Below are positions 6,584 through 59,043 of a stretch of 64,000 nucleotides of DNA, one piece after another (the first letter of the stretch is position 1; each line of letters begins with the position of its first letter). This stretch comes from an uncultured Gammaproteobacteria bacterium (lineage in GTDB: Bacteria > Patescibacteriota > Microgenomatia > Levybacterales > UBA12049): the NCBI GenBank assembly GCA_964490105.1, contig CAZAZU010000002.1, positions 12,751 to 76,750 on the forward strand, given 5' to 3'. The notes under the pieces are model-generated. The model had not been told where the DNA came from and searched no databases. It saw nothing but the letters and a program-made list of their open reading frames with translations. The position numbers were made by a program, and so were the translations under genes.

Positions 6584-6615
6584 TACTAATCTCAATGTAT
6601 AAAATGCAGGCTCAA

Positions 6616-8247: not shown

Positions 8248-8255
8248 GATTGTAT

Positions 8256-8862: not shown

Positions 8863-8866
8863 CCAA

Positions 8867-10645: not shown

Positions 10646-10647
10646 AA

Positions 10648-11843: not shown

Positions 11844-11887
11844 GAGAATTGCTAATTATAATAGCCTTTTTTAAGAAGTGTTACAAG

Positions 11888-12181: not shown

Positions 12182-12184
12182 TTT

Positions 12185-12715
12185 TTATCCAACTTTTCTT
12201 CGACCCTTTAAATATTTTTTGTCCTTTATGGTCAGGACGCTAAGCACATCAGCTTGATCCGACTTATCACAAACTGCCACTTTTACAATTACAGGAACAT
12301 CATTTTCTGGCCCAAGTATATCATCCATTCTCATAAAATAAACTCTTTGCCCTCCGGGATTAGCAAAATAATTTATTCTTCTATTGCCCACAGCGTCAAC
12401 TACTCCTCTAACTGCTGGACTGAAACCTGTTTCCGCATACTGAGGAAGCGAAGCATAAAACATATTATCTACGAGCGTACTCCTGTGCTCATCGAGTCTT
12501 TGAGCAGCTCGCAATAATTTCCTACCGCTAACTGCGTGTCCTAAATAAAACTCTCGACCGCCTTGAGGGACGAATTTAGCAAGCGTTATTTGCCTCTGAC
12601 TTTCTAGCCATGGAATTTGTTCAGGCCCAACCTGAGCAGTAAGGCCATGAGAAACCTCACTATATCCTGAAGGAATACCTTTATTTTCAAAATTTCTAGC
12701 AGGAATATCGCTCAC
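12185..12715 (-). CDS. hypothetical protein (GC-rich), inserted between mreB and mreC
   Basis: 176-aa ORF. Its start overlaps the mreB stop by 4 nt (ATGA-type coupling). Confidence 0.4.
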   Translation of the reverse strand: MSDIPARNFENKGIPSGYSEVSHGLTAQVGPEQIPWLESQRQITLAKFVPQGGREFYLGHAVSGRKLLRAAQRLDEHRSTLVDNMFYASLPQYAETGFSPAVRGVVDAVGNRRINYFANPGGQRVYFMRMDDILGPENDVPVIVKVAVCDKSDQADVLSVLTIKDKKYLKGRRKVG

Positions 12716-13800: not shown

Positions 13801-13906
13801 AAAAAAACAACTCTCAGCGTGTGTGAGGATTGAAATCCATTCTAGCACCTTGAGGTTATTTTGCAATAACTTACGCGCAATAAATTTAATATTGTTTCCA
13901 GTAAAA

Positions 13907-24880: not shown

Positions 24881-25621
24881 ATGAGCTTTAACTTGCTCAA
24901 TTCTGTTCGTGTAAAATTAATTGCCCTGGTACTAATGATCTTCATTGCTGTAACTATCTTTTTTGGTATTTTCTATTTGAGAAATAGAGAAGAAATACCA
25001 GATGAGCTTACTCTCCTAGACAGAGAGGGAGGAAAAATCTCCTATCTATATCCAAATTACATTAGCCAAGTTAGGGTTGAGGAAAAATTTAAAATCCTGC
25101 ACGATAAAAAACTCACAGAACAGGAAAGATATTCTGCGCTTGATAATCTAGCTTTCTTTTTCGGCTCTGCATATAGTGATACTAATGACGCGAAAATAAG
25201 AAAATATCTAGTCAACTTAGGTAAATATGGAGAAAAAGAATTCCCTGCTCTATTTAAAAAGGGTCCTTTTAACCCTGTGTGTCAAGATCCAAGCTGTGCA
25301 CCTCCGACTCCTGAGGAAATTAAATCAATAATTACTCAAATTAAATCGTCTGATGCTCCAAAAGAAGATATAGAAAGAATAACTAAGGCTCTATCAAATG
25401 CCAGCATGGTGGAAGATGATGCCGAGGATTTTAAATTTTACGCTTATAATCAGGCTTATACTGATATCAAGTCCGTAGCTGATACATCATCCTCTTCAGC
25501 CCTACTTAAAACACACGAAGATCTAGGTATATTTCTCTCAAAAAAATACCCGGAATATTGGGAACTCTACAAAGAAAACGTAAGTGAAGGTATAAAAGAA
25601 AGCTTTCTTGAAAATTTATGA
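24881..25621 (+). CDS. hypothetical membrane-anchored protein
   Basis: 246 aa with an N-terminal TM (LIALVLMIFIAVTIFFGIFYL). 4-nt overlap with the downstream giant gene. Confidence 0.4.
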   Translation: MSFNLLNSVRVKLIALVLMIFIAVTIFFGIFYLRNREEIPDELTLLDREGGKISYLYPNYISQVRVEEKFKILHDKKLTEQERYSALDNLAFFFGSAYSDTNDAKIRKYLVNLGKYGEKEFPALFKKGPFNPVCQDPSCAPPTPEEIKSIITQIKSSDAPKEDIERITKALSNASMVEDDAEDFKFYAYNQAYTDIKSVADTSSSSALLKTHEDLGIFLSKKYPEYWELYKENVSEGIKESFLENL

Positions 25622-28600
25622 AAAAAATATTACTAGCTCTTATAATATTCCTAGCACTATTTGAAATAGCTTCAAAAGTTAACGAAGTGCGTGCACATGG
25701 ACCAAGCAAGACTCTTTATTTTAGAAGATGTAACTATAATCCCGGAGTAAGATGGCAAGTTAGATATCAAGTCATATTTAGTGATAATAGTAAATCAGGA
25801 TATATATATGGAACTACGGGACCCGAATCAGCTCATAACGATTACTACGCGGAAGAAGTATGTAACGGATTCGCAAATAGAACTGGCGCATCTGAACCTC
25901 TCGTTAATACCGGCAGTAATGCAGCTGATCCGCCCCATCCAGGAGGATTTATAAGCAGTAGACTAGGACCGAGACAAGACAGTACAAAAATAGTATGGTC
26001 TACAGCTTGTGTAGATCCCGTAATCGATGCTATTACGGTCTACGAAACATTAGACGGAGGACATTTCATATGGGAATTTGTGGAAGACGTCTCATTTAGA
26101 CGTAATATAAATGGGTGCAATGTGCCAAACAGTGGATGCAGCGGTTTTAACGCAGGAAACTTAATCTCCGCAGTAGAGGGAAAAGGAACAATTAATTTTA
26201 GTGAGACAAGCAAATGCAGTAACAACCCCCCACCTCCAAAATACAAAATCAGCGGACATGTTTTTATAGATAAAAACGAAGATGGAGATAAGGACCCAGG
26301 AGAACCATACTACAACTCAGGAGATAGATCTATAGAAAAATGGGGAGACTATCATGAATATGAGGATGGTGGGTCAAACAACAATGGCTTCTATGAATTC
26401 TTTAATTTACCGGGAAGAGATGATTACGGAATTAAATTTAATGTTCCAAGTGGATATAGATGCACTACAGGAAGCGGATGCAGTCATGGCTGTCAAAGTC
26501 AGGGATGCGGAAATGGAATAACACTAGGACCGAGTAAAACTTATAATTTTGGTATCGCACTTGATCGCGGAGCAATTTCGGGAGTTGTTTATATAGATGA
26601 GTGGAACGGAAATAATCCGCCAAATGGAAAAATTGACGGGAATGATACCCGCCGACGAGATGAACTGGTAAGAATGGATCCCAATGGAGCAAATGAAACA
26701 CGAAGAACTGATAGGGATGGTAGGTATAGATTTGGAGATTTGAATCCGGGATCTGACCATAACATAAGACTTGACGGAATTGAGCCCTGCAGGTTAAATG
26801 TCATGGGCGATAATCCTAAAATAAATGTTAACGCTCCTTCAGGCGGAAATAACGATGTACATTTCAGACTCACCCGAAGGTATTTCGAGATAGTTGGAAA
26901 TATATATAGATATGATGCTGCCGAATGCACACCCACCATTAACACTAACTGTCAGGCATATGGAAGAAGCGTAAAGCTTACCGCTGTCGGAACAGGAAGA
27001 AATGATGATTCAAAAGCAGGAGATGCTCCTGACTATAAAATAACACGAATTCAGGATCAAAACGGGGCTTATTCAGTCAGACTTACAGGTCTTAGAGATG
27101 GAGAAAGTGTAGTTGGAGGAAATGAAAAAGACGTTATTGTTAACTGTGCAAATGCAAGACAGGATTTTTACATTCGTCCAGCTGGGGCTACTGAGTTCGA
27201 TATTTCAGGAACTGTTTATGTAGACTCAAACAACGATGGCGCTCTTCAAAAAGCAACGGATGAGATATATGATGGAGGCGGAACTGTTCAGATCAGAACT
27301 GGAAATAATTCAGCCTCGACTGGAAGAACAGGCCCAGTTAGGAATAATGGAACTTATACCGTAATAGACAATCCTCAGAACACAAATTATACTGTAAGAC
27401 TTCAACAAGGAACTCTAGCCTCAGGCTACACTGTACTAAACAATGATAGACGCATTAGCATGGGAACTGCAGACGTAGCTCAGGTTAACTTTTTAGTTGA
27501 TGCTCCTGCAAATACCTATTCTATCAGGGGTGGAGTTTATATAGATTCTGATAACCCTGAAGGAAAAAAGACTGGATCAGAGCCTTATGTTTCAGCAACC
27601 GGCAGTGAAAGAATAAGAATACAAGGACTCCCTGCAGGAGCAAATTGTCCTCAAAACAGATCTTCATTTGTTAGAGATATTAATAATTTTACAGGAGAAT
27701 TTATCGCAAGCGGAATTCAACCCGGATGCTATAGAGTCGAATTCAACGGACCTTCCGGCAGAGGTGCTAATTGGAGAGTAACTTACCCTTCAGGCATCTC
27801 CCCTTTTACCATTGGACCTATCATAGTAGGACCGAATTGTAATGATGACGCTACAGATCAAGATGGTATCGCTCTTTGCGCTACTGGCGCAGGAGGCGGA
27901 GTTAATGGAAATATCACAAATGTAGATTTTGGAATAAAACAGCAAGATGATAATCCCTGGTACCAATCAGTCGGTGGTGATGTACGCATTGACGAAGATA
28001 ATTACAGGAATATAATTCCGGATGGTAATTCTCCGGTCTGCACAAATTCTACATACCCTTATGTATCTTCTAACTCAATTAGCGGAAATCTAACATCTGG
28101 AGTAGTATTTACAGGAAGTAATCCTAACTTCTCAGATACCGGAAATGATAGATCAAAAGCTTCAAATCGAGGCTGGCTTCTAACAGGAAATGAATTTAGC
28201 CCGTCAAGACCCGGAACTATAAGAACCTCTTATACTTATATGAATAATATTATCGAGAAAGGAAGAATTACTGTTAACCCAATGTTTGGTAATAGCGCTA
28301 CTAAAACATGTATCAATAACTCTGGACCTGACTGTACTTTCAGAGCAAATCTCTTAAATGGAGTCTATAAATCAACAACTTCTGTAACTATCAGAGGAAG
28401 CGGAAATCCCGAAACATATACTTTTCCTGATGGAAGAGATTATGTTTTCTTAATTGAAGATGACCTAAGAATAGAATCTAATATTCAGGTAAATCCAGGC
28501 TCTACCGTAACATTCATAGTCAGCGGAGATATCATCATTAGTCCCGACGTAACTGAACTTGATGGAATTTATTCTGCCGATGGCAGCTTTATTACTCAGG

Positions 28601-29682
28601 GTATCGCAACCGGGGCAAACGACCAACCTCTAAGAATTGAGGGAAATGTGATCGCAAATGCCGGTTTAAATGCTGGGGAAAAGTTTGATCAAAGAAGAGA
28701 CTTGGGAGATGCTCAAAACGTAGATTGTCCAGCTGTAACCATAGTATCCCGCCCCGACTTTATACTAAATGGACCTGAGCTTATCCGATATACTAACTAT
28801 GTCATTCAGGAAATTGCACCTGGAGCAGATAGGAGCAGCCAAGGAGCTGGCGGATTTCTAATAGCTGATACATATACTCCTCCATTTACACCTGTCCCAA
28901 ATACACCTACTCCAAGACCCCCAACTCCTGAGCCAGAGGAGCCAACTAATACTCCCCGCCCTAGCCCAAGACCGTCTCAAGAACCGGAGGAAGATAATTT
29001 TCCTTTTTTTTGTCAATATGGGGCAGTTAATAAAAACGGCTGGGTTCCTGAATCAGACAGACATTCATGGGACTACACTTACGATGGCGGTAAAAGATGT
29101 GATATTTATGGAAGCGGATGCGCCATGACTTCACTTGCAATGATTATGAAATATTTTGGTGACAACATGAACCCGGAAAGCACATCGAGACAGGCTACAA
29201 ACAATAAATACCCTATTAACTTGGGATGTCAGTCTCCTGGAACCTTAACCTCTCAATTAACTAATACTGTAGTACCATGGCTAAGAAACAGGAATTATTC
29301 AGTCCCTGGGGGTGACCGTCCAAATCAAGTTCAATTTACATTCGATAGTCAAGGAGATTACACAGGCAAAATTAACCTTAAAGTATTAAAAGTATATATA
29401 GATCATGGATATTTACTGTTGGGGGGAGCAAAAATTACTATGGCGACAAAACAAGGATTGTCAGAACCTGCTGGGCATGCATTTGTTATAACAGATATAA
29501 ATGTTGAGAACGAGACGATGACAGCTTATGATCCTACTTTCTGTCAAAAAGATTATCCAAATCTTCAGGGAGGCAAAAGAACAATTAGAAATGTGAACAA
29601 AATTGGAGGAAATCCAATAGGCTGTTCTAATGGAGATTGTGGATGGGTGCAAATGTTTGCTATAAAGAAGAAACCTAACTAA
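25618..29682 (+). CDS. giant secreted surface protein with SdrD/CnaB-type Ca-binding repeats and C-terminal C39-like (papain-fold) peptidase domain
   Basis: Signal peptide. At least four repeats of the form G.V(F/Y)(I/V)D.N.(D/N)G..D.GE (HVFIDKNEDGDKDPGE, GVVYIDEWNGNNPPNG, GTVYVDSNNDGALQKA, GGVYIDSDNPEGKKTG). Pro-rich linker TPPFTPVPNTPTPRPPTPEPEEPTNTPRPSPRPSQEPEE. C-terminal GSGCAMTSLAMIMKYFG (C39-type Cys motif) and a later GHAFVITD (His). Confidence 0.65.
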   Translation: MKKILLALIIFLALFEIASKVNEVRAHGPSKTLYFRRCNYNPGVRWQVRYQVIFSDNSKSGYIYGTTGPESAHNDYYAEEVCNGFANRTGASEPLVNTGSNAADPPHPGGFISSRLGPRQDSTKIVWSTACVDPVIDAITVYETLDGGHFIWEFVEDVSFRRNINGCNVPNSGCSGFNAGNLISAVEGKGTINFSETSKCSNNPPPPKYKISGHVFIDKNEDGDKDPGEPYYNSGDRSIEKWGDYHEYEDGGSNNNGFYEFFNLPGRDDYGIKFNVPSGYRCTTGSGCSHGCQSQGCGNGITLGPSKTYNFGIALDRGAISGVVYIDEWNGNNPPNGKIDGNDTRRRDELVRMDPNGANETRRTDRDGRYRFGDLNPGSDHNIRLDGIEPCRLNVMGDNPKINVNAPSGGNNDVHFRLTRRYFEIVGNIYRYDAAECTPTINTNCQAYGRSVKLTAVGTGRNDDSKAGDAPDYKITRIQDQNGAYSVRLTGLRDGESVVGGNEKDVIVNCANARQDFYIRPAGATEFDISGTVYVDSNNDGALQKATDEIYDGGGTVQIRTGNNSASTGRTGPVRNNGTYTVIDNPQNTNYTVRLQQGTLASGYTVLNNDRRISMGTADVAQVNFLVDAPANTYSIRGGVYIDSDNPEGKKTGSEPYVSATGSERIRIQGLPAGANCPQNRSSFVRDINNFTGEFIASGIQPGCYRVEFNGPSGRGANWRVTYPSGISPFTIGPIIVGPNCNDDATDQDGIALCATGAGGGVNGNITNVDFGIKQQDDNPWYQSVGGDVRIDEDNYRNIIPDGNSPVCTNSTYPYVSSNSISGNLTSGVVFTGSNPNFSDTGNDRSKASNRGWLLTGNEFSPSRPGTIRTSYTYMNNIIEKGRITVNPMFGNSATKTCINNSGPDCTFRANLLNGVYKSTTSVTIRGSGNPETYTFPDGRDYVFLIEDDLRIESNIQVNPGSTVTFIVSGDIIISPDVTELDGIYSADGSFITQGIATGANDQPLRIEGNVIANAGLNAGEKFDQRRDLGDAQNVDCPAVTIVSRPDFILNGPELIRYTNYVIQEIAPGADRSSQGAGGFLIADTYTPPFTPVPNTPTPRPPTPEPEEPTNTPRPSPRPSQEPEEDNFPFFCQYGAVNKNGWVPESDRHSWDYTYDGGKRCDIYGSGCAMTSLAMIMKYFGDNMNPESTSRQATNNKYPINLGCQSPGTLTSQLTNTVVPWLRNRNYSVPGGDRPNQVQFTFDSQGDYTGKINLKVLKVYIDHGYLLLGGAKITMATKQGLSEPAGHAFVITDINVENETMTAYDPTFCQKDYPNLQGGKRTIRNVNKIGGNPIGCSNGDCGWVQMFAIKKKPN

Positions 29683-37740: not shown

Positions 37741-38160
37741 ATGGCAAAAAAAATTAAAACAATTATAAAGATTAACATTCCAGCTGGAGCAGCAACACCA
37801 GCACCACCTGTTGGAACTGCATTAGGTCCGCACGGACTTCCTATCATGGAATTCGTACAGGCTTTTAACGAAAGAACCGCAGATCAAAAAGGAAATATTA
37901 TTCCTGCAGTTATTACAGTGTATGAAGACAGAACTTTTTCTTTCATAACTAAAAAACCACCTATGTCAGAACTTATTAAAAAGGCTATTGGCAGAGGCGG
38001 CGCAAATAATCCAGGAAAAGAAGTGGCAGCAACACTAACAAAATCTCAAGCTGAAGAAATTGCCAATACAAAAATGGAAGATCTTAACACAACTGATCTT
38101 CCTCAAGCAGTAAGTATCGTAAAAGGAACAGCAAGAAGTATGGGGGTAAAAGTAGAATAA
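37741..38160 (+). CDS. rplK: 50S ribosomal protein L11
   Basis: IKINIPAGAATPAPPVGTALGPHGLPIMEFVQAFN is near-universal L11 sequence. Confidence 0.9.
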   Translation: MAKKIKTIIKINIPAGAATPAPPVGTALGPHGLPIMEFVQAFNERTADQKGNIIPAVITVYEDRTFSFITKKPPMSELIKKAIGRGGANNPGKEVAATLTKSQAEEIANTKMEDLNTTDLPQAVSIVKGTARSMGVKVE

Positions 38161-38978
38161 TGGGAAAAATTAGAGTAAAAACATTAGGAGACGAAGAACA
38201 GGAATTAAAAGATAAAGCTGAAATGGAAGCAAAAAGAGCCGAAAAGAAAGCCCGCGAAGAAGCTGAAGAAACACAAACAGAAGAACCTGATACTCAATCT
38301 GAAAAGGTAGAAACTACAGAAGCTCCATCAGAAGAAACTGAAGCATCGGAAAAACCAAAAGCAAAAAAGAAAAAAGAAAAGTTTATTAAGAAAAAAGTTC
38401 GGTCAGTTGCTTATAAAGCTAAGATCATGGAAATTGAAAAAAACAAAGTCTATTCCCTAACAGATGGAATTGAACTTTTAAGAAAAGTTAAAATCGCAAA
38501 ATTTGATGAAACAGTTGAACTTCACATAAATACTACAGAAGCAGGAATCAATGGAACAGTAAAACTTCCACACGGAACAGGAAAAGAAATTAAAGTTGCG
38601 ATCGCAGACGATGCAGTGCTCGCAGAAGTAGAAAAGGGGAAAATTAATTTCGATATATTAATTGCAGAGCCTAGTATGATGCCAAAACTAGCTAGAGTTG
38701 CTAGAGTGCTCGGTCCAAAGGGACTCATGCCAAATCCAAAAAATGGAACTATTTCACAGAATCCAGAAGAAGCAGCTAAAAAGTTCCAAGGAGGGCAAAT
38801 TGGATTTAAAACAGAAAGCAAACTTCCAATTATTCATTTAAGTGTTGGAAAAACTTCTTTTGAAGACAAACAGCTTGAAGAAAATATAAAAACAATTATC
38901 ACGGCTATTAAGAGAGATAAAATTAGAAATATTACTCTTAAATCCACCATGTCCCCAGGTATAAAAATCCAGGCTTAA
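38160..38978 (+). CDS. rplA: 50S ribosomal protein L1 with ~85-aa K/E-rich N-terminal extension
   Basis: Core from YSLTDGIELLRKV...VELHINT...VLGPKGLMPNPKNGT matches L1. Overlaps the rplK stop. Confidence 0.85.
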   Translation: MGKIRVKTLGDEEQELKDKAEMEAKRAEKKAREEAEETQTEEPDTQSEKVETTEAPSEETEASEKPKAKKKKEKFIKKKVRSVAYKAKIMEIEKNKVYSLTDGIELLRKVKIAKFDETVELHINTTEAGINGTVKLPHGTGKEIKVAIADDAVLAEVEKGKINFDILIAEPSMMPKLARVARVLGPKGLMPNPKNGTISQNPEEAAKKFQGGQIGFKTESKLPIIHLSVGKTSFEDKQLEENIKTIITAIKRDKIRNITLKSTMSPGIKIQA

Positions 38979-39019
38979 ATTAGCGAATAATTTGATTATT
39001 TTTTTTCTATAATCCCTCT

Positions 39020-39064
39020 TCAACGCATTGACAAAGCTAATCATATTTCATACTGTTATATAAT
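39020..39064 (+). promoter_or_regulatory. putative promoter (TTGACA ... TATAAT) for the inserted secreted-protein cluster
   Basis: ttgacaaagctaatcatatttcatactgttatataat directly upstream of the ATG at 39065. Confidence 0.3.
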
Positions 39065-40348
39065 ATGGAGCGAATACTTCAGCATAAGCTGATTTTAGTA
39101 ACAATTGCTATTCAGCTTTTCGCTCTACCCTTGGTTCTTTTTGCGGTAAAAGAAAGACAGGAAACTAGAACTCAGGCTTCAGCTTCAACATCATTATCAT
39201 TCTCCCCCACCTCTGCTTCCGATACACCTCATAATGTAAACGTAGGCCAGGAGTTTCCCGTAGATGTAATTGTTATTCCCAGCAATAATTTAATTACACT
39301 TGCAAAATTAGAAATATTATATGATTCTTCGAAATTCTCATTATCAGATACGAATCCAATCGTAATTAATACGACTGCATTTCCTCAAACAATAGAGGGG
39401 CCAGTTTATACTCATGGAAAAATTCAGATAGTAGTATCTACCGGATTTGACTATACGAAAGTAATTCAGGCAGAAACAAAAATTTTAACAATTAATTTAA
39501 AGGCTAATACACCAGTAAGCCAAACCCAATTATCTTTTGGATCAAATAGCGGTCTTTATTCTTTAGGCAGTGGTGATTCAAGTAGTATAAGTGTATTATC
39601 AGCAACAACTCCAATCTATGTTAAAGTAAACGAAGCTCCAACTCCTACATTCACACCTGTTCCTACCAACACTCCAACTCCATCCCCAAAACCCACAATC
39701 ACGCCTACACCAACGATTACTCCAACTCCATCCCCAAAACCGACTTCTACACCAATCCCTACTAATGCTCCGACACCAATTCCAACAATTGGAACTACAA
39801 CTTTATTTTTTGAAGGGCTTAAATTACATGGTTTAGGAAAAGGTGGAGACAGTCCCAATCCAAACAGTAATGGTACTCTAAACCCATTAAGAACCACTAG
39901 GGAATTAACCGTAGAACTATATGATAATTCAAATAACCTTATTAATTCTTCTAAAGGTTATATTAAATACACTGTTCCAACTGAAGGAGTATTTAATGGA
40001 GCCGTAGATTTACCAAACACCATACAGGATGGAGATTATTTCATAACAATCAGAACCCCATACTATTTAGGAAAACGACTCCAAGGATATACAACAGTTG
40101 CAAAAGGCCAATCTGTCACGATTAACAATCAATCCGCAGTTTTGGTGGCAGGAGATATTAATCTCGATAATAAGCTTTCAGTTTTGGATTATGACATAAT
40201 AATGGAGTGCTACAGTGATCTTCAGGCAGCTAAACCTACATGCACAGCTGAGAAAAAATTAGCAGCTGATATTTCTGATGATGGAAAAGTTAACCAGGAT
40301 GACTATAATTTATTTATAAGAGAGCTTTCGATTCAAAAAGGAGAATAA
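39065..40348 (+). CDS. secreted protein with cohesin-like N-terminal domain, PT-rich linker and C-terminal dockerin-like repeat pair
   Basis: Signal/anchor. N-domain [31 protein letters not shown] is cohesin-like. Linker [51 protein letters not shown]-terminal [21 protein letters not shown] and [22 protein letters not shown] match dockerin type-I Ca-binding repeats. Confidence 0.5.
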
Positions 40349-40349
40349 G

Positions 40350-41501
40350 ATGAGAAAACTATTTATAATTTTAGTCTTATCTCTAACAATTGCCTTAACT
40401 AAAAGCGATGAGTCCAATGCTCAAGGATCTTGTATGACTACCCCACCCACAAACACAGGAACCTCTACCATATCTACTACGACTACGGCCGGTACATACA
40501 GAGTTTGGGCAAGAATTAAAGCTGCAGATACCAGCAATAATTCTTTCTACTTAAGAATTGATAGTCAGTGTGCTATTTTAGTCGGAGATAATAATCAAAT
40601 TTCTGCGGCTTCTTGGACATGGGTAGACTATCAAAGTGGAATAACTACAAATAAAATAAATACCACCCTAACCGCTGGAGACCACGTGGTCACAATTATT
40701 GGAAATGAACCAGGAGTAAGCGTAGATAAAATATTAATGACAAAAAATCTAACCTGTGTACCAACTGGCTTCGGAGAAAATTGCCCCATAGAATTACCAA
40801 ATACGCCTACCAATACTCCAACTGCTTTACCTACAAATAACCCTACCCCAAAACCATCTAATACCCCAACTCCAACACTAAAACCTAGCTCAACCCCTAC
40901 CCCCACAAATATTCCAACATCTACTCCAACTCCCATTGTAACTGCTGCTCCTCTAGAAACTGTACTTAAGTTCAATATTGTTAAACTTCACGGAATTGGA
41001 ATAGGTGGAGATAATACTAATCCAACAATCACTGGAAATACTAACCCAGCTACTCAAACAAGAGTATTAAGCGTAGAACTTTATGATAACTCAGGTGTTT
41101 TAGCAAAAACAGTACAAGGAAATATAGTTTATGGAGCTGGAAATGGATATTTCTCAGGTTCTATAGTTCTTGATTCAAGTGTAGTTGAGGGAAATTATTT
41201 AATTAAGATCAAGACTGACAAATACCTAAGAAGACAACTGAGTAGGATAATCGAAATTAAAAAAGGCAATATAATAGATATGCCAGAGGCGACACTAGTT
41301 GTTGGAGATTCAAATGGCGATGGAACATTAAGTATTCTTGACTACAGCATAATCCTTGATTGCTATAGTGACTTCCTGGATCCGAAGAATTGTGCTGACC
41401 CAGCTAAAAAATCAAAAGCTGACCTTTCAGATGATGGAAAAGTAAATCATGATGACCATACTCTTTTCCTTCGAGAACTGTCAGTTGTGACGGGTGATTA
41501 A
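40350..41501 (+). CDS. secreted protein with CBM-like beta-sandwich N-domain, PT-rich linker and C-terminal dockerin-like repeat pair
   Basis: Signal peptide. Linker NTPTNTPTALPTNNPTPKPSNTPTPTLKPSSTPTPTNIPTSTPTP. C-terminal VGDSNGDGTLSILDYSIILDCY and ADLSDDGKVNHDDHTLFLRELS. Same architecture as the upstream paralog. Confidence 0.5.
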   Translation: MRKLFIILVLSLTIALTKSDESNAQGSCMTTPPTNTGTSTISTTTTAGTYRVWARIKAADTSNNSFYLRIDSQCAILVGDNNQISAASWTWVDYQSGITTNKINTTLTAGDHVVTIIGNEPGVSVDKILMTKNLTCVPTGFGENCPIELPNTPTNTPTALPTNNPTPKPSNTPTPTLKPSSTPTPTNIPTSTPTPIVTAAPLETVLKFNIVKLHGIGIGGDNTNPTITGNTNPATQTRVLSVELYDNSGVLAKTVQGNIVYGAGNGYFSGSIVLDSSVVEGNYLIKIKTDKYLRRQLSRIIEIKKGNIIDMPEATLVVGDSNGDGTLSILDYSIILDCYSDFLDPKNCADPAKKSKADLSDDGKVNHDDHTLFLRELSVVTGD

Positions 41502-42858
41502 AATGAATCCAAATGTTAAAAACCGTTTAATAAAAAAGTATGCAACTCTTGGAATCCTACTTCTAACAATCGCGCTTCCTATAACTCTTTATCAGGTTCG
41601 TCAAAATCAGGATAATCGCTCTAGCGCTGCGGCTGCGGATAAACTTGAGGCTGAAGGAGGACTTTTAAGTGGAAATGCGACCAAGCAAACAGATACATTA
41701 GCTTCAGGTGGAAGTTATGTAAAACTACAAATAAGCAACGCAACTCCCACTCCCGATCCCAGTAAGCCAATTGTTGGTGTAATTCGTTGGGATGCTTGGA
41801 CACCAAATCTTCATCCTACAACAACTACTCAAAATAAATGGATAACAGCTGATTTAGGAAAATGGGGCTATCGTTTACCGTTTTTTGCAAAAAATCTTCC
41901 CAACAATACAAAAGATTCAGAAGTGATAAATGAAGATAGCCAGGAAATTATAGATAAAGAAATTCTATACACATCACAAGCTGGCATAAATTATTGGACT
42001 TTTTTCTGGTTTAATTTCTGGTGGCAGGATAGTAATACAACATGGCGATACAATTACGGCCTAAATAATTATCTAAATAGTCCGTATAAAAATAAGATGA
42101 ATTTTGCTTTAATGCTCGGCTGTTGTGGCCTGCTAGATCATTATCCGACTGACTGGGAACCAAAAGTAGTACCTAAAATTGTGAACCTTGTTAAGCAACC
42201 TACATATCAAAAAGTTTTAAATGGCAGACCTATCATATATGTTTTTGGAGCTTCTCAATTAAGTGGATGGTTCAATTGTGGATACTATGATTATAGATAT
42301 GGTACTTGCGCTGACAAAAGCTATACTAAATCAAAGGTTGCATTAGACTATCTTAGAGCAGAGATTCAGAAAGCAGGACTGCCAAATCCGTATCTAGTAG
42401 CTATGGTTTGGGATCCGGGAAATAAAAATTATACAAGTTCCACTGGGTATGGCTTTGATGCAATAACTTCTTATTCAGGCCATGATGCTAGCGTTAATAC
42501 TTTAACCCAAAAATCATACACAACTCTTTCAGCTGATAATTTGGCTTATCGCGAAAAAGCAAAGGCTTCGGGCAATAAAATTATTCCACCTGTTAACACG
42601 GGATGGGATCGCCGTCCAGATCCTGGTTATAATGGGGTCTGGTACGAAGCTGGAACTCCAATTCAAGTAGGAGCTAATCTTAAAGCTGCTATCGACTGGA
42701 ATAAAGCTAATCCAACGCTTACGGAAACAAATAATGTGTTAATTTATGCATGGAATGAATTTGTTGAGGGCGGTTGGCTTGGCCCTACACTCGAAGATAA
42801 AGGAGCTAGACTAAATGCAATTTCCAATATATTAGGTGGCACACAAATTAAGCCATGA
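41494..42858 (+). CDS. membrane-anchored/secreted hypothetical protein (possible glycoside-hydrolase-like domain) carrying conserved post-TM motif
   Basis: TM LGILLLTIALPITLY, then VRQNQDNRSSAAAADKLEAEGGLLSGNA...ASGGSYV. A Trp/Tyr-rich domain (GVIRWDAWTP...). 8-nt overlap with the upstream gene. Confidence 0.45.
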   Translation: MIKMNPNVKNRLIKKYATLGILLLTIALPITLYQVRQNQDNRSSAAAADKLEAEGGLLSGNATKQTDTLASGGSYVKLQISNATPTPDPSKPIVGVIRWDAWTPNLHPTTTTQNKWITADLGKWGYRLPFFAKNLPNNTKDSEVINEDSQEIIDKEILYTSQAGINYWTFFWFNFWWQDSNTTWRYNYGLNNYLNSPYKNKMNFALMLGCCGLLDHYPTDWEPKVVPKIVNLVKQPTYQKVLNGRPIIYVFGASQLSGWFNCGYYDYRYGTCADKSYTKSKVALDYLRAEIQKAGLPNPYLVAMVWDPGNKNYTSSTGYGFDAITSYSGHDASVNTLTQKSYTTLSADNLAYREKAKASGNKIIPPVNTGWDRRPDPGYNGVWYEAGTPIQVGANLKAAIDWNKANPTLTETNNVLIYAWNEFVEGGWLGPTLEDKGARLNAISNILGGTQIKP

Positions 42859-44468
42859 AAAAAAATAGATTTGGTATTTTTATATTACTAATAGCTCTAA
42901 TTGCTCTACCGTTAATTCTGTCTGAAGTCAAACAGAATCAAGATAATCGCTCTTCTGCTGCAGCTGCAGACAAATTAGAGGCTGAAAGCGGAATATTAGG
43001 AGGTAATGCACAAAGCATCTCTGATCAAACAGCTTCTGGCGGAAATTATATAGTCTTTGCAAATCATTCTCCAACTCCTACAGCCCCAGCTACTCCCACG
43101 CCATCAAACATTGATGCTGGTCTAACAGTTCCCACATCATCATTCCAATTTCCGACTACTCCCGCATCAGGTGGACAAATTAGAAATGTTACTTCTTATG
43201 GAGCGACTTGTAATAATTCAACTAACGATGACAGCGTAGGGATTAAAGCCGCTATAACAGCATCAATCGCAGGAGATGATGTAATTTTTCCCTCAAACTG
43301 CACGCTTCATTTAAAAACATGGCCAATTGATCTTAAAACAGGGGTGAGCTTAAAAGGCCAAGATAAAACTACCTCTATTCTTCACGGAATGTTCAGTACC
43401 GCTCCAAATCCTCTTTTTTATGCCAGAACTCAGGCTTCGACTTCTACAAATCAGCCTGTTTCAAATCTTTCGATTACAAATTTCAGCTATACAACTCTAT
43501 CTGGAACTCCTCCGGATATACTTATTAAGCTCGGACATGGAACATGGAATACAAATAATTCTGAATGGAAAACGGTCTCTAAGATTAAGATTGAAAATCT
43601 AACTATTGAGAAATTCAGAAAATACGCAATTGATATTCAAAATTCAGAGTTTATTTATGTAGCAAATAATGTGATCAAAAATGCAACTTCGCTCGGCGGC
43701 GGAGGTGAAGGTTATGGAATAAAAATAGATATGGATAAGTCTAAGAATAATTGGATTAAAGGAAATATAGTAGGTCCAGTAATCAGACACGCCTATTTAG
43801 TCCAATACGATGCAAATCATAATCTTTTTGAAGGAAACACGGCTACCGGAACCACGCAAGATGCCTTTGATATGCATGGAGAAAATGAATTTAGTAACGA
43901 ATTTAGGAATAATATCGTGACAAATTGCGTTACTACCGATCCCTTCACAGGCACCGCTACATACGGTTCAGGATTTGGAATTGGCGAAGTTCCTACATCT
44001 ACAAGCGCACCCCCAGGAGATGCAGGTCATCACGATTTTACAGGAGATAATAATTGGATTCATGATAATTCAGTTTCAGGCTGTTATTCCGGAGTAAGAG
44101 TTAATAACACAAATAACACCTATATTGAAAACAATATTATTACAAATAACAGAAGCGGCGGAATCCTTATTGGAGATCTTGATACTTACATATTTCCTGA
44201 GTTAACTTCAAACCCACCGGCCTATGGCACCAATAATATAATAGCTAAAAATAATACTGTAAAAAATAATCCAGTAGGCTTCAGAATTAAAAATGCTAAA
44301 AATCCTCAAATACTAAATAATATAGCGACAAATAATGCCGGTGCTGGGCTTACTTTAACAGTACAGACAACTGGATACATAATATCGGGCAATGACTTCA
44401 GATTTAACACATCTGCAATAAATCTAGGAGGTAATACTTCCGGAACCTTCACAAATAATCTGCAATAA
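42855..44468 (+). CDS. membrane-anchored/secreted right-handed parallel beta-helix (pectate-lyase-fold) protein carrying the same post-TM motif
   Basis: TM FGIFILLIALIALPLIL, then VKQNQDNRSSAAAADKLEAESGILGGNA...ASGGNYI. PbH1-type repeats (NNIITNNRSGGILIG, NNTVKNNPVGFRIKN, NNIATNNAGAGLTL). Confidence 0.55.
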   Translation: MKKNRFGIFILLIALIALPLILSEVKQNQDNRSSAAAADKLEAESGILGGNAQSISDQTASGGNYIVFANHSPTPTAPATPTPSNIDAGLTVPTSSFQFPTTPASGGQIRNVTSYGATCNNSTNDDSVGIKAAITASIAGDDVIFPSNCTLHLKTWPIDLKTGVSLKGQDKTTSILHGMFSTAPNPLFYARTQASTSTNQPVSNLSITNFSYTTLSGTPPDILIKLGHGTWNTNNSEWKTVSKIKIENLTIEKFRKYAIDIQNSEFIYVANNVIKNATSLGGGGEGYGIKIDMDKSKNNWIKGNIVGPVIRHAYLVQYDANHNLFEGNTATGTTQDAFDMHGENEFSNEFRNNIVTNCVTTDPFTGTATYGSGFGIGEVPTSTSAPPGDAGHHDFTGDNNWIHDNSVSGCYSGVRVNNTNNTYIENNIITNNRSGGILIGDLDTYIFPELTSNPPAYGTNNIIAKNNTVKNNPVGFRIKNAKNPQILNNIATNNAGAGLTLTVQTTGYIISGNDFRFNTSAINLGGNTSGTFTNNLQ

Positions 44469-44520
44469 TTACTATAGATCTAATTAATTCCCGAATTCTT
44501 TATTAACTACAGGATATGTA

Positions 44521-44549
44521 TTGACAGATTGAGGCTCAGCTGATATTAT
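44521..44549 (+). promoter_or_regulatory. sigma70-like promoter TTGACA-17-TATTAT for rplJ-rplL
   Basis: ttgacagattgaggctcagctgatattat. The ~95-nt structured leader that follows is consistent with an L10 autoregulatory leader. Confidence 0.5.
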
Positions 44550-44645
44550 GTCACTTACCTAAGACAGCGGGCAATCAATAAGTCCTGCCGAGGATGTAAT
44601 AAGCTCAAATTGAGCGCATCAACACCTTAGGAGGGTGTTTTTTTT

Positions 44646-45383
44646 ATGGGAATAGTAAAACAAGCAGTAAAACATACTGGACGTGGGCGAAAAGAAGAAA
44701 TCGTAGCTGAATTAGTCGAGAAAATCGATAACTCTAAAGCTTTGGTTTTTACTGACTATCAAGGTCTTACTCATGTTCAGCTCGAAAGTCTTAAAAAAGA
44801 ACTTAAAAAAAATGACGCTACAATCATAATCGCTAAGAATAGTCTTCTTAAAATCTCTCTTGGTAAATCAAAAAACTACGCGGACTTTAAAGATAATGAG
44901 AGTCTAAATCTTCCAACAGCTACTCTTTTTATGCAGGGAGATTATGTAGAACCTCTTAAACAGCTCCAAAAAGCACTTAAAGATTTTGGGCTTCCAAAGA
45001 TAAAGTTTGGCATTTTAGAAGGCCAAGCTCTTGATGAAGCTCAGGTTATAAAAATAGCTTCACTACCAAATAGAGAAACACTTCTTACTCAGTTAGTTGG
45101 TGTTCTTAACTCCCCTATTCAGGGATTGGTTGTAACTCTTAATGGAACTATTCAAAAATTTGTAATGACACTTGGAGCAATTGCAGCAAATAAACCAGCG
45201 ACTCCAGCGGATGCCCCAGTCGCAGAAACAACAAGTGAAACACCAGCAGAATCTGCACCAACAGAGGAAACACCTAGTGAAATGGAAAATACAGAGCCTG
45301 CTCCTTCTGAGGCAAAAGAAGAACAAGCGACCGAAGATTCTACTTCCAATGAAAAACCTGAAGAACAAACTCAAAATCCTTAA
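44646..45383 (+). CDS. rplJ: 50S ribosomal protein L10 with ~70-aa acidic low-complexity C-terminal extension
   Basis: The N-terminal ~175 aa are L10-like (KEEIVAELVEKIDNSKALVFTDYQGLTHVQLESLKKEL...). Tail ATPADAPVAETTSETPAESAPTEETPSEMENTEPAPSEAKEE. Confidence 0.85.
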   Translation: MGIVKQAVKHTGRGRKEEIVAELVEKIDNSKALVFTDYQGLTHVQLESLKKELKKNDATIIIAKNSLLKISLGKSKNYADFKDNESLNLPTATLFMQGDYVEPLKQLQKALKDFGLPKIKFGILEGQALDEAQVIKIASLPNRETLLTQLVGVLNSPIQGLVVTLNGTIQKFVMTLGAIAANKPATPADAPVAETTSETPAESAPTEETPSEMENTEPAPSEAKEEQATEDSTSNEKPEEQTQNP

Positions 45384-53065: not shown

Positions 53066-54082
53066 CTATTTTCTCGAAATACTACGCTTGTAAAGCTCTA
53101 TGTTTTCCAAAGCTACACCTGTCCCCCTGACAACACATAAAAGCGCGTCTTCAGCCACATGACAAGGAACACCAGTTTGCTTTGTCATAAGCTTATCAAA
53201 GTTATGAAGGAGCGATGTTCCTCCGCTCATAACAATTCCCTTATCAATGATATCACTTGCAAGCTCTGGGGGAGTTTTTTCCAATACTCCCTTAACCCCA
53301 TGAATAATTTCATTTAATGCCGGCATGACAGCCTCATTAATTTGCTCCTGAGTAAGTTCAATAGTTCTCGGAAGACCGGTAATACTATCTCTTCCTCTGA
53401 TCTCCATTTTCTTTTCATTTGCTTCTTTTCTATCTTCAACCAAGGCTGTTCCTATTTCGATTTTTATCTCCTCCGCGGTCCTTTCTCCAATTAAAAGGTT
53501 AAATTTCTTTTTCGTGTAGTTTGAAATAGCCTCATCTATCTTATTTCCTCCCATTCTCACCGAATCGTGCACTACAACTCCTCCCAAAGAAATTACTGCA
53601 ATTTCAGTGGAACCTCCACCCATATCTACAACCATGTGACCCGCAGGCTGAGCGATCGGAATTTTTGCTCCAATTGCAGCTGCCAATGGCTCATCAATTA
53701 AGTAAGCGACTTTTGCTCCTGCTGACATTGTGGCATCCAAGACTGCGCGGCGCTCAACCTGAGTCACACCTGAAGGAATACAAACCATTACTTCTGGCTT
53801 GAAAAATCTGGAAGCACCTGTCGCTTTGTCTATAAAATATGAAAGCATAGCTTCAGTTATGGTGTAATCAGCTATAACTCCATCCCGAAGGGGTCTCATC
53901 GCGACTATATTTCCAGGAGTCCTGCCCAGCATCTCCTTAGCTTCTTTACCTACAGCTACGACCTTATTCTCTTCAGCCGTTACAGCTACAACCGTAGGCT
54001 CATTTATTACAATTCCTTCACCACCAAGATATACAAGTGTGTTTGCTGTCCCGAGATCAATTGCGATTCTTTTCGATAACAT
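53066..54082 (-). CDS. mreB: rod shape-determining protein MreB (copy 2, canonical length)
   Basis: RIAIDLGTANTLVYLGGEGIVINEPTVVAV, DMGGGSTEIAVISL. 338 aa. Confidence 0.85.
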   Translation of the reverse strand: MLSKRIAIDLGTANTLVYLGGEGIVINEPTVVAVTAEENKVVAVGKEAKEMLGRTPGNIVAMRPLRDGVIADYTITEAMLSYFIDKATGASRFFKPEVMVCIPSGVTQVERRAVLDATMSAGAKVAYLIDEPLAAAIGAKIPIAQPAGHMVVDMGGGSTEIAVISLGGVVVHDSVRMGGNKIDEAISNYTKKKFNLLIGERTAEEIKIEIGTALVEDRKEANEKKMEIRGRDSITGLPRTIELTQEQINEAVMPALNEIIHGVKGVLEKTPPELASDIIDKGIVMSGGTSLLHNFDKLMTKQTGVPCHVAEDALLCVVRGTGVALENIELYKRSISRK

Positions 54083-56269: not shown

Positions 56270-56968
56270 TTATTGCTTAAAGATTGTATCAGTTTTACGT
56301 GGTCTTGCAAAAACTAAAAGTCTTTTAAATGCAGTTCCTGGAGGCCAGCAAGTTTGAAGAATAAGCTGCTCTCCGCCCTCTTGAGCTTGAGTGATAAATG
56401 AAACGTCGGTTGGATCTACTATTTTAGTGCCAGTTACGAAGTAGTTATGTCTTTCTCCCTTATAAAAAACCACAATCTCATCCCCTTCTTTCAAATCCTT
56501 CAAAAGATAGAAAATTGCGTTATATCGTCCTGCATCCCAGAAATTATCTGCAGAGTGCGCAAATAAATAAACATTTCCTTGGAGTCCTGGAAAAACTGAT
56601 CCCTGCGCATGCGCTACTCCCTGTTGCAAAGCTGGACCAAATTTACCTTCATCTGAAGGATCTACATTAGCAATAATCTTAGAAGTAGCCCCTATTTTAG
56701 GTATCAAAATACTAAACTCTGTATCAATAGGACTCAACTCCTGCTCTTTTGCTCCAGTTAACAGATCTGCGAAAGATGCTGTTTGCCTAGGCGCACTTGC
56801 CACTGTTTCTGAAATTTCAAACTCAACTCCCCTAGCCTGAATTATCCTATACTGAGCTTCATAATAACCAGCAGGACCAAAAGTCGCAATCACACCAAAA
56901 ATAGCAAAAAGGAATAAGAAATTCCCGAATGTTCGAAGAATTAAAAACCTGATGTCATGTTTATTCAT
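56270..56968 (-). CDS. sortase family transpeptidase
   Basis: N-terminal TM. Catalytic motifs LFAHS (His) and LILQTCWP (TLxTC Cys), with a downstream Arg (VFARP). Confidence 0.6.
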   Translation of the reverse strand: MNKHDIRFLILRTFGNFLFLFAIFGVIATFGPAGYYEAQYRIIQARGVEFEISETVASAPRQTASFADLLTGAKEQELSPIDTEFSILIPKIGATSKIIANVDPSDEGKFGPALQQGVAHAQGSVFPGLQGNVYLFAHSADNFWDAGRYNAIFYLLKDLKEGDEIVVFYKGERHNYFVTGTKIVDPTDVSFITQAQEGGEQLILQTCWPPGTAFKRLLVFARPRKTDTIFKQ

Positions 56969-57147: not shown

Positions 57148-58239
57148 ATGATCCCTATGGAACCTGTCCCGCCAAAATCTCCGTTGCCTGACGCACAAGT
57201 CACAACTGCATCACCAGATGCTCGACCAGCATTGGGTGGTAGATTTTCTAGGGTTACCGGATTAGCGACTAGAGCTTTGGGATTAGATCAGCAGCCCGCT
57301 CAAGCAGCACAACAAGCACCTGCACCATCATTCGAACCAGCCGCTACTCCAGGACTTCAGCCAAAAATTGATACTACTCCGGCAACTGGAGCTGTCGTGC
57401 CAAGTCCATGGGCAAGTCCGGATGGAGCAATTTCAGGAGGAGCTACTGATGCCACAGTCACTGATGGGATCACAGAACCGGTAGCGCCCCCTACACCAGA
57501 ACCAGGACTTACTACTCCTGCTCCAGAACCAGCAGGTGATACTAATTCACTTGAAGGAACGAGTACGACAACTACAGTTACTGCTCCCATCTATTCTCCA
57601 GAAGCAGTGGTAATCCCACCCTTGCCAGAACCTGTCGCTGAACCAACTGCTACTCCTAGCTCTGAACCAATTGTGTCAACACCAGCTCCAGAAAGCGCTG
57701 TCGAGCCGGCTGCAGATACGACTGCTATTGAGCCTGAACCTGCTGTAGCTTCTGCTCCAGAACCCGTAGCTACGCCAGCACCTGAACCATCTCCTGCAGT
57801 TGCTCCGGTTTGGACTCCTGATGCTTCACCAGCACAACCCATTACAGCAATTGAGCCTGACATGAGACCTTCATCCACGCCATCAGTTGAACCAATAACG
57901 TCAGCTGCGCCACCTGAAGAAGCAGCAGACGCAGCCACCGAAATCGCAGAAGAACCTCCTCTATTTAGAAAGGTTGTAGATGGTGACCTGATTAGATATG
58001 AATTCACTCCAGAAGGCAGAGAAAGAATCAAGGGCGCATTTACAAAAGCTATCGACAGCGGAGCTTTTGAGGATCTTGCAGGAATGTTCGCTAGCGGACA
58101 AGGGGTAGAACCAAAAGCAGATGTCTTAAGCACAACAACTCAACCAGCAGAACCGCAACCCGCAACTTCAACAGCTGAAGCATCCGTAGAACCAACAAGT
58201 CCGTTTACTACTACTTCAACTCCAGGTGGAACCGTATAA
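57148..58239 (+). CDS. Pro/Ala/Thr-rich low-complexity protein (GC-rich)
   Basis: 363 aa, mostly PEPAxxTPA-type low complexity. A short globular-looking segment RKVVDGDLIRYEFTPEGRERIKGAFTKAID. Confidence 0.4.
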   Translation: MIPMEPVPPKSPLPDAQVTTASPDARPALGGRFSRVTGLATRALGLDQQPAQAAQQAPAPSFEPAATPGLQPKIDTTPATGAVVPSPWASPDGAISGGATDATVTDGITEPVAPPTPEPGLTTPAPEPAGDTNSLEGTSTTTTVTAPIYSPEAVVIPPLPEPVAEPTATPSSEPIVSTPAPESAVEPAADTTAIEPEPAVASAPEPVATPAPEPSPAVAPVWTPDASPAQPITAIEPDMRPSSTPSVEPITSAAPPEEAADAATEIAEEPPLFRKVVDGDLIRYEFTPEGRERIKGAFTKAIDSGAFEDLAGMFASGQGVEPKADVLSTTTQPAEPQPATSTAEASVEPTSPFTTTSTPGGTV

Positions 58240-58281: not shown

Positions 58282-59043
58282 ATGCAGAAAAAGAATCACA
58301 ACCCTTCAGAATCCTCATCAAACTGGCAAAATGAACTAAAAAAACAAGAAAGATCTAACATGATGAAGAAGATCCTAATGTGGGGAGCAATAATTGGTGT
58401 TTCAATTCTTGGACTCGCAGGTCTAGTTTTAATTGCAGATAAAAGTACTTCATCAACGGAGACACCAGTAGAGAATGTAAATCTTCCAAAAATGACAGAA
58501 GATGACATAGTCGTAGGAGATAGAAATGCCAAAGTAACAATTACTGAATATGCAGACCTTCAATGCCCTGCTTGTGCAGCTGTAAATCCTTTAACCAATC
58601 GTGTTCTTGAAGAATATAACGGAAATATAAAATTAGTTTACAGATTCTTCCCTTTGCGTGGAATACATAAAAACGCATTAATCTCAGGCCAAGCTGCATA
58701 TGCGGCGCATAAATTAGGTAAGTTCTCGGAAATGAAAGATCTTCTGTACGCAAATCAAGCAGATTGGGAAAACCTGGGAGATCCTAAGGAAATTTTTGAA
58801 GGTTATGCGAGCTCAATTGGACTAAATGTAGAAGAATTTAGAAAAATTATGAATAGCGATGAGGCTAAGAAAGCAGTTGAAGACGACGAGAAAGAAGCAA
58901 TTGGCCTTGGACTTAACTCAACCCCGAGCTTTTTCATAGGAAACAAACAATTTAGTGTCTCAAATTACGATGAATTAAAAAAGCTAGTTGATGAAGAACT
59001 TAAGAACTCAGGAACTAAACCTACCGTAAAACCTCTTCAATAA
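58282..59043 (+). CDS. DsbA-family thiol:disulfide oxidoreductase (membrane-anchored)
   Basis: TM, then a thioredoxin-fold region with CPAC active site (ADLQCPACAAVNP). Confidence 0.75.
   Translation: MQKKNHNPSESSSNWQNELKKQERSNMMKKILMWGAIIGVSILGLAGLVLIADKSTSSTETPVENVNLPKMTEDDIVVGDRNAKVTITEYADLQCPACAAVNPLTNRVLEEYNGNIKLVYRFFPLRGIHKNALISGQAAYAAHKLGKFSEMKDLLYANQADWENLGDPKEIFEGYASSIGLNVEEFRKIMNSDEAKKAVEDDEKEAIGLGLNSTPSFFIGNKQFSVSNYDELKKLVDEELKNSGTKPTVKPLQ

Follow-up and report, generated by a model that had tools for sequence, protein, structure and literature searches.

Background

The cohesin-dockerin cellulosome of the Clostridia type, among the described systems close to the locus considered here, comprises modular secreted carbohydrate-active enzymes (CAZymes) with Pro/Thr linkers, scaffold proteins with cohesin domains, and dockerin-bearing enzymes and adaptors encoded in the same gene cluster. 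Bacteria of the candidate phyla radiation (CPR), or Patescibacteria, make up a large share of bacterial diversity, and their attachment to and feeding on cells and polymers are poorly understood. In this work we have analyzed a stretch of 64,000 nucleotides (the window; GenBank assembly GCA_964490105.1, contig CAZAZU010000002.1, positions 12,751 to 76,750 of the forward strand) and, within it, an N-terminal module shared by proteins of an island of four genes, P1 to P4, which lie on the same strand between rplA and rplJ. Like the cellulosome, this island and its counterparts in related loci (designated L001, L003 and so on) encode modular secreted CAZymes with Pro/Thr linkers, cohesin scaffolds (P1 in the window; scaffolds with a C-terminal transmembrane anchor in L018 and L022) and dockerin-bearing enzymes and adaptors in one cluster. 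Unlike in the cellulosome, most enzymes of the cluster lack a dockerin and carry an orphan β-hairpin at the N-terminus instead, the host is a CPR bacterium and the cluster is placed between rplA and rplJ.

Three further groups of described systems are relevant. The carbohydrate-binding modules (CBMs) of the CBM6, CBM35 and GH115_C type provide the fold to which both pieces discussed below belong: the hairpin can be aligned with their first two strands (EAE ... ASGG.YV) and the N-terminal domain of P2 has the same fold, but neither the hairpin (about 30 of about 130 residues) nor the P2 piece is a complete module. The YSIRK/GS and SipW-cognate (TIGR04088) signals resemble the module in being an extra conserved motif in or near the signal peptide of a functional subset of proteins; here, however, the motif lies in the c-region and not at the boundary of the n- and h-regions, and there is no sequence similarity, model match or dedicated peptidase. 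Donor-strand pili, i.e. those of the chaperone-usher type and the Pam pili of CPR bacteria, share with our proposal the concept of an incomplete β-sandwich and a free terminal strand supplied by another chain after Sec export. They differ in that here the fold would be a CBM jelly roll and not Ig-like, two strands and not one would be donated, the donors would be enzymes and not pilins, and chaperone genes are absent. They are a conceptual precedent only, and complementation in the present system is hypothetical, resting on sequence complementarity and gene adjacency. Pam pili have been described as donor-strand exchange pili in Saccharimonadia and Microgenomatia (bioRxiv 10.64898/2026.03.03.709456), and an essential dockerin-domain protein (SEML1_0315, Southlakia) has been reported in a cultivated Saccharibacterium (PMC10633639). 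Our literature searches returned no description of the motif; the module is apparently undescribed, with no curated family covering it.

We propose, with a probability of roughly 0.45, that the module is a two-part export-and-docking leader of a cellulosome-like, cell-surface polysaccharide-degrading system of CPR bacteria.

Results

A two-part module at the N-terminus of the island proteins

The sequence-only reading of the window had reported that P1, P3 and P4, different in their mature domains, share a hydrophobic helix followed by a polar motif, that P3 and P4 continue near-identically beyond it, and that this arrangement suggests processing or sorting by a dedicated peptidase or anchoring machinery. 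All the peptide and DNA strings quoted were found in the window, and the codons of P3 and P4 give both DNA strings. The near-identical continuation was confirmed: residues 34-76 of P3 align with residues 24-66 of P4 with 30 of 43 positions identical (70%, E=2e-15), and outside these segments the two proteins show no significant similarity and are unrelated. The pattern proposed for three proteins holds for P3 and P4 but only in part for P1, which reads VKERQETRT, with R for N at one position, and shares the leader without the continuation. The pairwise similarity of P1 and P4 is not significant (E=0.4); P1 was counted as a member because cohesin proteins of other genomes (P0130, P0133, P0153 and P0160) carry the same leader (profile E=1e-9 to 3e-7). 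A six-frame scan of the whole window found the core Q[DENQ].R[ST] behind a hydrophobic helix in the P1, P3 and P4 open reading frames (ORFs) and nowhere else, and the other exported proteins of the window, P2 included, have ordinary signal peptides. On the basis of anatomy and homology we conclude with high confidence that the shared N-terminus is a two-part module composed of (a) a Sec-type leader and (b) an orphan hairpin of about 30 residues. The features of the island are as follows.

38160..38978, plus strand: rplA (ribosomal protein L1), the left border of the island, from the ORF list; the island is likewise bordered by homologous L1 genes in L001, L003, L007, L011, L013 and L017
39065-40348, plus strand: gene P1, cohesin and dockerin (Pfam)
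39065..39178, plus strand: leader of P1, part (a) only (basic n-region, helix, polar stretch), the same as on the four cohesin proteins named above
39233..39595, plus strand: cohesin domain of P1, residues 57-177 (Pfam Cohesin, E=6.5e-5, 23.6 bits, just below the cut-off of 24.1)
40148..40327, plus strand: C-terminal dockerin of P1, residues 362-421 (Pfam Dockerin_1, 26.6 bits, cut-off 22.9)
40350-41501, plus strand: gene P2, weak CBM-like N-domain and dockerin (Pfam)
40350..40424, plus strand: ordinary signal peptide of P2 (..SNA↓QGSC), without the shared leader
40431..40784, plus strand: hairpin-less CBM6/35/GH115_C-like domain of P2, Cys28 to Cys145 (profile matches, AlphaFold2 (AF2) model, Foldseek)
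41304..41465, plus strand: C-terminal dockerin of P2, residues 319-372 (Pfam Dockerin_1, 24.1 bits, cut-off 22.9)
41494/41503-42858, plus strand: gene P3, WbsX-like glycosidase-type domain (Pfam PF14307)
41494..41637, plus strand: leader of P3, part (a), with a long basic n-region, ..TIALPITLYQ and VRQNQDNRSSAAAA
41638..41727, plus strand: orphan hairpin of P3, DKLEAEGGLLSGNATKQTDTLASGGSYVKL, followed by the Pro/Thr linker and the WbsX-like cargo (positions 119-153 of the local full-domain profile described below, E=9e-10)
42855-44468, plus strand: gene P4, right-handed β-helix (Pfam)
42855..42968, plus strand: leader of P4, part (a): MKKNRFG, IFILLIALIALPLILS and EVKQNQDNRSSAAAA (a single helix in the AF2 model, residues 5-38)
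42969..43058, plus strand: orphan hairpin of P4, DKLEAESGILGGNAQSISDQTASGGNYIVF (local full-domain profile from position 120, E=1e-12; AF2 predicted local distance difference test (pLDDT) values of 22-29)
43059..44468, plus strand: Pro/Thr linker and right-handed β-helix cargo of P4 (Pfam Beta_helix and NosD), no dockerin by regular expression
44646..45383, plus strand: rplJ (ribosomal protein L10), the right border of the island

For P3 the ORF list gives a GTG start at 41494, overlapping the end of P2, and P0015, the public protein, has its start at ATG 41503, two bases past the P2 stop codon; the true start is probably this ATG. The window is AT-rich (GC about 0.37) and CPR-like, and the host of the module appears Levybacteria/Microgenomates-like; the public P4 homologue P0008 bears the name 'Candidatus Levybacteria bacterium'.

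Part (a), the export leader

Part (a) opens with a basic n-region, continues with a hydrophobic helix in which one Pro is invariant (LP[LI]), and closes with a polar stretch rich in Gln whose last residues are R-[ST]-x-A. In the leader alignment the P, R and A positions are invariant and the R-[ST]-x-A motif is invariant or near-invariant. The succession of a basic n-region and a hydrophobic h-region (MKKNRFG and the helix following it in P4) is that of a Sec signal and recurs in 99 homologous leaders; R-[ST]-x-A provides small residues at -3 and -1 of a putative signal peptidase I (SPase I) site. The cohesin domain (P1) or the hairpin (P3, P4) starts 3-9 residues past this small-x-small site: in P1, whose leader ends in ...TQA, position 10 of the cohesin profile aligns at residue 57, which places strand 1 from about residues 41-48. 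The polar stretch, EVKQNQDNRSSA, has about 12 residues, against about 3-7 for a short c-region; in the AF2 model the helix runs on into it (P4 residues 5-38). No lipobox Cys, twin-arginine motif or G↓F(T/S)LIE before the helix was found in the leaders. Part (a) is most likely a Sec signal peptide of lineage-specific shape, cut by the ordinary SPase I.

In the window and in about 200 kb of related loci part (a) is confined to island proteins, namely cohesin scaffolds, hairpin-tagged enzymes and some dockerin enzymes. It occurs without part (b) on the cohesin proteins (P1 and its four relatives) and on some dockerin enzymes: a GH26 (L001), a GH114 (L017), a PL8-like protein (L013) and a 1440-residue β-helix protein (L011). 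In each of these cases the mature domain begins a few residues past the final Ala. Conversely, Saccharibacteria-like lineages lack the Gln-rich R[ST]xA stretch and keep the hairpin, which is placed right after ..AAG↓TP (..AAG↓TP[IV]AFEAESGTL...SG.GAVKF). Since the hairpin persists there without the Gln-rich stretch, parts (a) and (b) are separable.

Part (b), the orphan hairpin, and its complement in P2

The hairpin follows the consensus [AP]D[KQ]LE[AT]E.G.L.....(~8)D..ASGG.Y[VI].F over about 30 residues. It occupies the predicted mature N-terminus, or a position close by, and is followed by a Pro/Thr linker and then by cargo enzymes that are interchangeable. Among 99 tagged proteins, a set clustered at 50% identity, the residues A35, E42, E44, G46, D57, A60, S61, G62 and G63 are invariant or near-invariant.

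The origin of this segment was indicated by a minority of profile matches, long non-CPR proteins in which only profile positions ~41-72 are matched, internally and in 3-6 copies each. There the hairpin runs into a full domain of about 130 residues (...AGTYR...NNSFFV.VDG...L.AG.H.I...RE.G..LD.I.L), which scores marginally as GH115_C, CBM_6 or CBM_35. A local hidden Markov model (HMM) built from 67 such full domains aligned the hairpins at positions 119-153 (P3, E=9e-10; P4, E=1e-12) and the N-terminal domain of P2 at positions 174-267 (E=7e-19); the two pieces are complementary and do not overlap. Judged by these profile matches, the hairpin is a homolog of β-strands 1-2 of a CBM6/CBM35/GH115_C-type sandwich, the rest of which is found in P2. 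The continuation shared by P3 and P4 is thus a part of a CBM6/35-like domain and not, as the sequence-only reading had suggested, a protease or sorting motif.

A complete sandwich has about 120-170 residues, and in the tagged proteins the hairpin stands for about 30 of about 130: 92 of the 99 match the hairpin part only, in none is the remaining domain found as a continuation in cis, and two of the 99 carry a separate complete domain as cargo. A sequence search of the PDB with a full domain gave nothing meaningful. In the AF2 model of P4 the β-helix is predicted confidently; the hairpin region (residues 39-90) has a pLDDT of 22-37 (22-29 for the hairpin itself) and no secondary structure. Packing of the hairpin on its own cargo was ruled out by these low values and by the unrelated nature of the cargos. 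In the model the hairpin neither folds alone nor packs, behaviour that would be compatible with folding onto a partner. Its E-x-E and a conserved Asp in the last strand of P2 occupy positions which we take to be structural calcium ligands in CBM6/35 structures.

The P2 domain matches only positions 67-160 of 172 in GH115_C and 42-107 of 125 in CBM_6. AF2 predicts for it eight strands with a pLDDT of 83-92, and Foldseek retrieved CBM35, CBM6 and CBM36 structures; the alignments span about 100 columns and the targets have about 130 residues, which fits a sandwich without its first 30 or so residues. The family to which P2 belongs consists of small proteins with an ordinary signal peptide (AxA↓AC), a hairpin-less CBM-like domain, a Pro/Thr linker and a dockerin; the domain has an invariant Cys at both ends, and in all homologs the hairpin is missing and the domain starts at the conserved Cys. 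One member is labelled Candidatus Saccharibacteria. A 710-residue dockerin protein of L011 (15518-17650) combines both states, with two hairpin-less domains (starting SCPTVPTNTG) flanking one complete domain that has its own hairpin (IEAEN...NGQYI).

Hairpin and dockerin exclude each other

A dockerin motif was detected by regular expression in none of 104 full-length tagged proteins; the same expression detects the dockerins of P1, P2 and all P2-family proteins. Pfam Dockerin_1 likewise had no match among the 99 tagged members. Within the islands dockerins occur in 19 of 30 untagged proteins compared with 0 of 35 tagged ones. By this mutual exclusivity the hairpin behaves as an alternative to the dockerin.

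Genomic linkage of tagged genes, P2-type genes and cohesin genes

Islands of this kind also occupy the rplA-rplJ gap of L001 (12 genes), L003, L004, L005, L006, L007, L009, L011, L013 and the more distant L017. Their usual order is dockerin enzymes, cohesin protein(s), a P2-type gene and two to eight hairpin-tagged genes. In the window and in L001, L003, L004, L006, L007, L008, L013, L017 and L024 the tagged array follows immediately downstream of the P2-type gene, the last of these loci (74-14647) presenting the largest array seen, with a P2-like gene followed by nine consecutive tagged genes of varied cargo. Genes for cohesin and dockerin proteins occur together in the window (P1/P2) and also in L001, L018 and L022.

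The linkage persists in Saccharibacteria-like contigs, where the genes are not at rplA-rplJ and the leaders lack the Gln-rich motif. In L019 and L020 a tagged gene lies directly downstream of a P2-family gene. In L022 (1000-10324) four tagged genes are followed by one for a cohesin-fn3-dockerin protein, a P2-family gene and one for a cohesin protein that is anchored by a C-terminal transmembrane segment, and L018 (6868-12285) has a similar set of tagged enzymes, cohesin-fn3-dockerin protein, P2-family protein and membrane-anchored cohesin protein. From their gene content both clusters look like a complete anchoring scaffold set.

As an observation in its own right, insertions recur between rplA and rplJ within the conserved secE-nusG-rplKA-rplJL cluster (window 38979-44645; L001 4637-21710), which makes this gap a hot spot: many related genomes have an island there, of variable content, with 4 to 12 genes for secreted CAZymes, cohesin proteins and dockerin proteins. 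The loci L003-L014 (GTDB records CAZMGC01, CAYILI01 and others) are CPR/Levybacteria-like in gene content and ribosomal proteins, and their 'uncultured Gammaproteobacteria' labels are apparently wrong.

Spread and divergence of the module

An exhaustive search of 1.84 billion cluster representatives with a profile of 15 leaders gave 304 matches at E<=1e-3 and 106 at E<=1e-10, far more than chance would produce. A search with the 72-residue module alone gave one match, owing to the size of the database, and a DNA scan of GTDB with a narrower leader alignment recovered close relatives only. In nearly all profile matches the module is at the extreme N-terminus and is followed by a Pro/Thr linker. 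The Pfam cargo of the 99 members is diverse: Beta_helix (24 proteins), GH10, PL8, GH5, GH99, alginate lyase, chondroitinase B, pectate lyase, α-1,3-glucanase and metallophosphoesterase. P4 homologs from other metagenomes carry the same N-terminus, and some proteins match P4 over the first ~12% only, their mature parts being pectate-lyase-like, PL8 or of unknown folds.

The sequence-only reading had itself pointed to simple recent duplication as the alternative to a signal. The module is not restricted to recent paralogs: at least 100 unrelated cargo proteins carry it, and synonymous sites have diverged, 16 of the 34 identical residues in 55 aligned codons of P3 and P4 being encoded by different codons. 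The unrelated cargo and the synonymous divergence of this pair exclude an artefact of recent paralogy. The longest identical DNA runs of P3 and P4 are about 12 nt, too short for the leader to serve as a present-day recombination handle in this genome, and this candidate role was rejected.

In the first tagged gene the leader MNP[ND]VK(N/S)RLIKKYATLG.. is kept by position while the cargo differs among genomes, with the break at the Pro/Thr linker. Such a pattern indicates evolution by cargo exchange at the linker. Separately, a block of two tagged genes (574 and 403 residues) is present twice in tandem in L009 (609-4614 and 4651-7576) with identical N-termini, as either a very recent segmental duplication or an assembly artefact.

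Search for a dedicated peptidase or sorting machine

The expectation of a class-specific N-terminal signal, rather than a by-product of duplication, was borne out by the at least 100 unrelated cargo proteins; the dedicated machinery proposed to read it found no support, and the end of the leader is an ordinary SPase I-like site. No gene for a peptidase, sortase or rhomboid protease was present in any island or cluster examined. Regular expressions found neither SPase I box motifs nor the sortase TLxTC motif in the window or in L001-L016, the window sortase having been found through Pfam alone. Among the NCBIfam and Pfam signal models (YSIRK, SipW-cognate, PEP-CTERM-type and others) none covers the N-terminal 80 residues at E<=1.

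The window sortase (56270-56968, minus strand) has no obvious link to the tagged proteins. A C-terminal LPXTG is absent from P3 (ending ..ILGGTQIKP) and P4 (ending ..TFTNNLQ), and the sortase is not implicated because the tagged proteins lack this signal. Two other ways of involving a sortase were considered and rejected: LP[LI]T, present in some leaders, as its site, since it is inside the N-terminal helix, not conserved and without Gly, and a poly-Ala mature N-terminus as its nucleophile, since it is absent in Saccharibacteria-like leaders.

Several other genes of the window were recorded. A 363-residue Pro/Ala-rich ORF without a Pfam match and with a GC of 0.51, against about 0.37 for the window, adjoins the sortase gene (57148-58239, plus strand). 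Further envelope genes encode a DsbA-like thioredoxin (58282-59043, plus strand), a 1354-residue protein with SdrD_B and C39-like peptidase domains (25618-29682, plus strand) and an 813-residue M23 peptidase (19386-21827, minus strand). Two MreB-like actin homologs, judged by their N-terminal sequences only, are encoded at 12712-13866 and 53066-54082 (both minus strand).

Discussion

The reading of the module as an export-and-docking leader can be laid out as a sequence of steps. After Sec export, SPase I would cleave behind R-[ST]-x-A and expose the hairpin at the mature N-terminus. The free two-strand hairpin of each enzyme would then insert into the hairpin-less CBM6/35-like domain of a P2-type adaptor, rebuilding a complete jelly roll and possibly the E-x-E/Asp calcium site, and the dockerin of the adaptor would plug into the cohesin of P1-type scaffolds. 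The parts of this scheme are held with different confidence. That the hairpin serves as a docking or retention tag in place of a dockerin, as its strict mutual exclusivity with dockerins suggests, has in our judgement an even chance of being right. Its partner is named more tentatively: the likeliest candidate, though still a doubtful one, is the hairpin-less CBM of the P2-type adaptor encoded alongside, and the same caution applies to the notion of a split CBM docking system, in which the hairpin of the enzyme would complete the domain of the adaptor in trans.

Several observations weigh against the scheme. The P2 domain is predicted to fold confidently alone, the terminal Cys residues could replace strand 1, and the domain may need no partner; the P2 family moreover uses an ordinary signal peptide. 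The low AF2 confidence of the hairpin is equally expected of a functionless spacer. The polar stretch of about 12 residues exceeds a typical c-region, so the leader could be an uncleaved signal anchor. L023 has three tagged genes with no P2 within 12 kb, L021 has P2-like genes without an obvious tag, and many of the adjacent placements were seen in genomes related to one another and do not count as independent evidence.

Of the competing explanations, the one closest to our proposal retains docking or retention as the role of the hairpin and changes the partner, which would be a cohesin, engaged by β-sheet augmentation, or the cell wall, S-layer or a glycan; alternatively the hairpin would be a Ca2+-dependent membrane-proximal stalk on an uncleaved signal anchor. 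The exclusion of dockerins and the constant clustering of tagged genes with cohesin genes suit it as well, as do the E-x-E at the presumed calcium-ligand position of CBM6/35 domains and the long helix 5-38 in the AF2 model, which is compatible with a signal anchor. Some 30 residues are, however, unlikely to form a glycan site alone, we know of no precedent for a cohesin binding to such a hairpin, and the reading does not account for the neighbouring gene that, in many lineages, encodes this fold without the hairpin. We regard this explanation as unlikely.

Less probable still is the view of the sequence-only reading, that the motif behind the helix is a sorting signal which, as in the YSIRK/GS, SipW-cognate and sortase systems, is read by a dedicated peptidase or anchoring machine and directs the proteins to a particular site or processing step. 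The restriction of part (a) to island proteins, its invariant P, R and A positions, the unusual length of the polar stretch for a c-region and the presence of a sortase in the window would agree with it; the generic -3/-1 site at the end of the motif, the lack of peptidase, sortase and rhomboid genes in or adjoining any island, of SPase boxes (window and L001-L016), of signal model matches and of C-terminal LPXTG, and the absence of part (a) in Saccharibacteria-like lineages that keep hairpin, cohesins and P2 family, make it quite improbable. We consider it very improbable that the hairpin has no function of its own and is what remains of an N-terminal CBM that was once complete, retained as a spacer and spread among tandem genes, as a cassette handle, through duplication and leader recombination. 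Tandem arrays of 2-9 tagged genes, the leader of the first gene conserved in place ahead of changing cargo with a break at the linker, the duplicated block in L009 and the disorder predicted by AF2 are what such a history might leave. Yet the synonymous divergence of P3 and P4 is high and their shared runs of ~12 nt are too short for a recombination handle in this genome; over the 99 proteins, and in lineages with different leaders, E-x-E, D and ASGG are conserved, and strict exclusion of dockerins is unexpected of a neutral spacer.

The module marks a class of CPR surface enzymes (xylanases, lyases, glucanases and others) of at least 300 sequence clusters, tied genomically to cohesin and dockerin proteins. 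Were it no more than a leader, it would still serve as a practical marker by which the secreted glycan-degrading enzymes of Microgenomates can be recognized in sequence. Should the hairpin prove to be a docking tag, this would explain why most CAZymes in these clusters are without a dockerin, the cargo list of a CPR cellulosome-like machine would be readable from sequence, and a small peptide/domain pair could be reused as a protein-assembly tool. Docking through a split CBM would, if true, constitute a second protein-protein docking principle for cellulosome-like complexes beside cohesin-dockerin, widespread in CPR bacteria.

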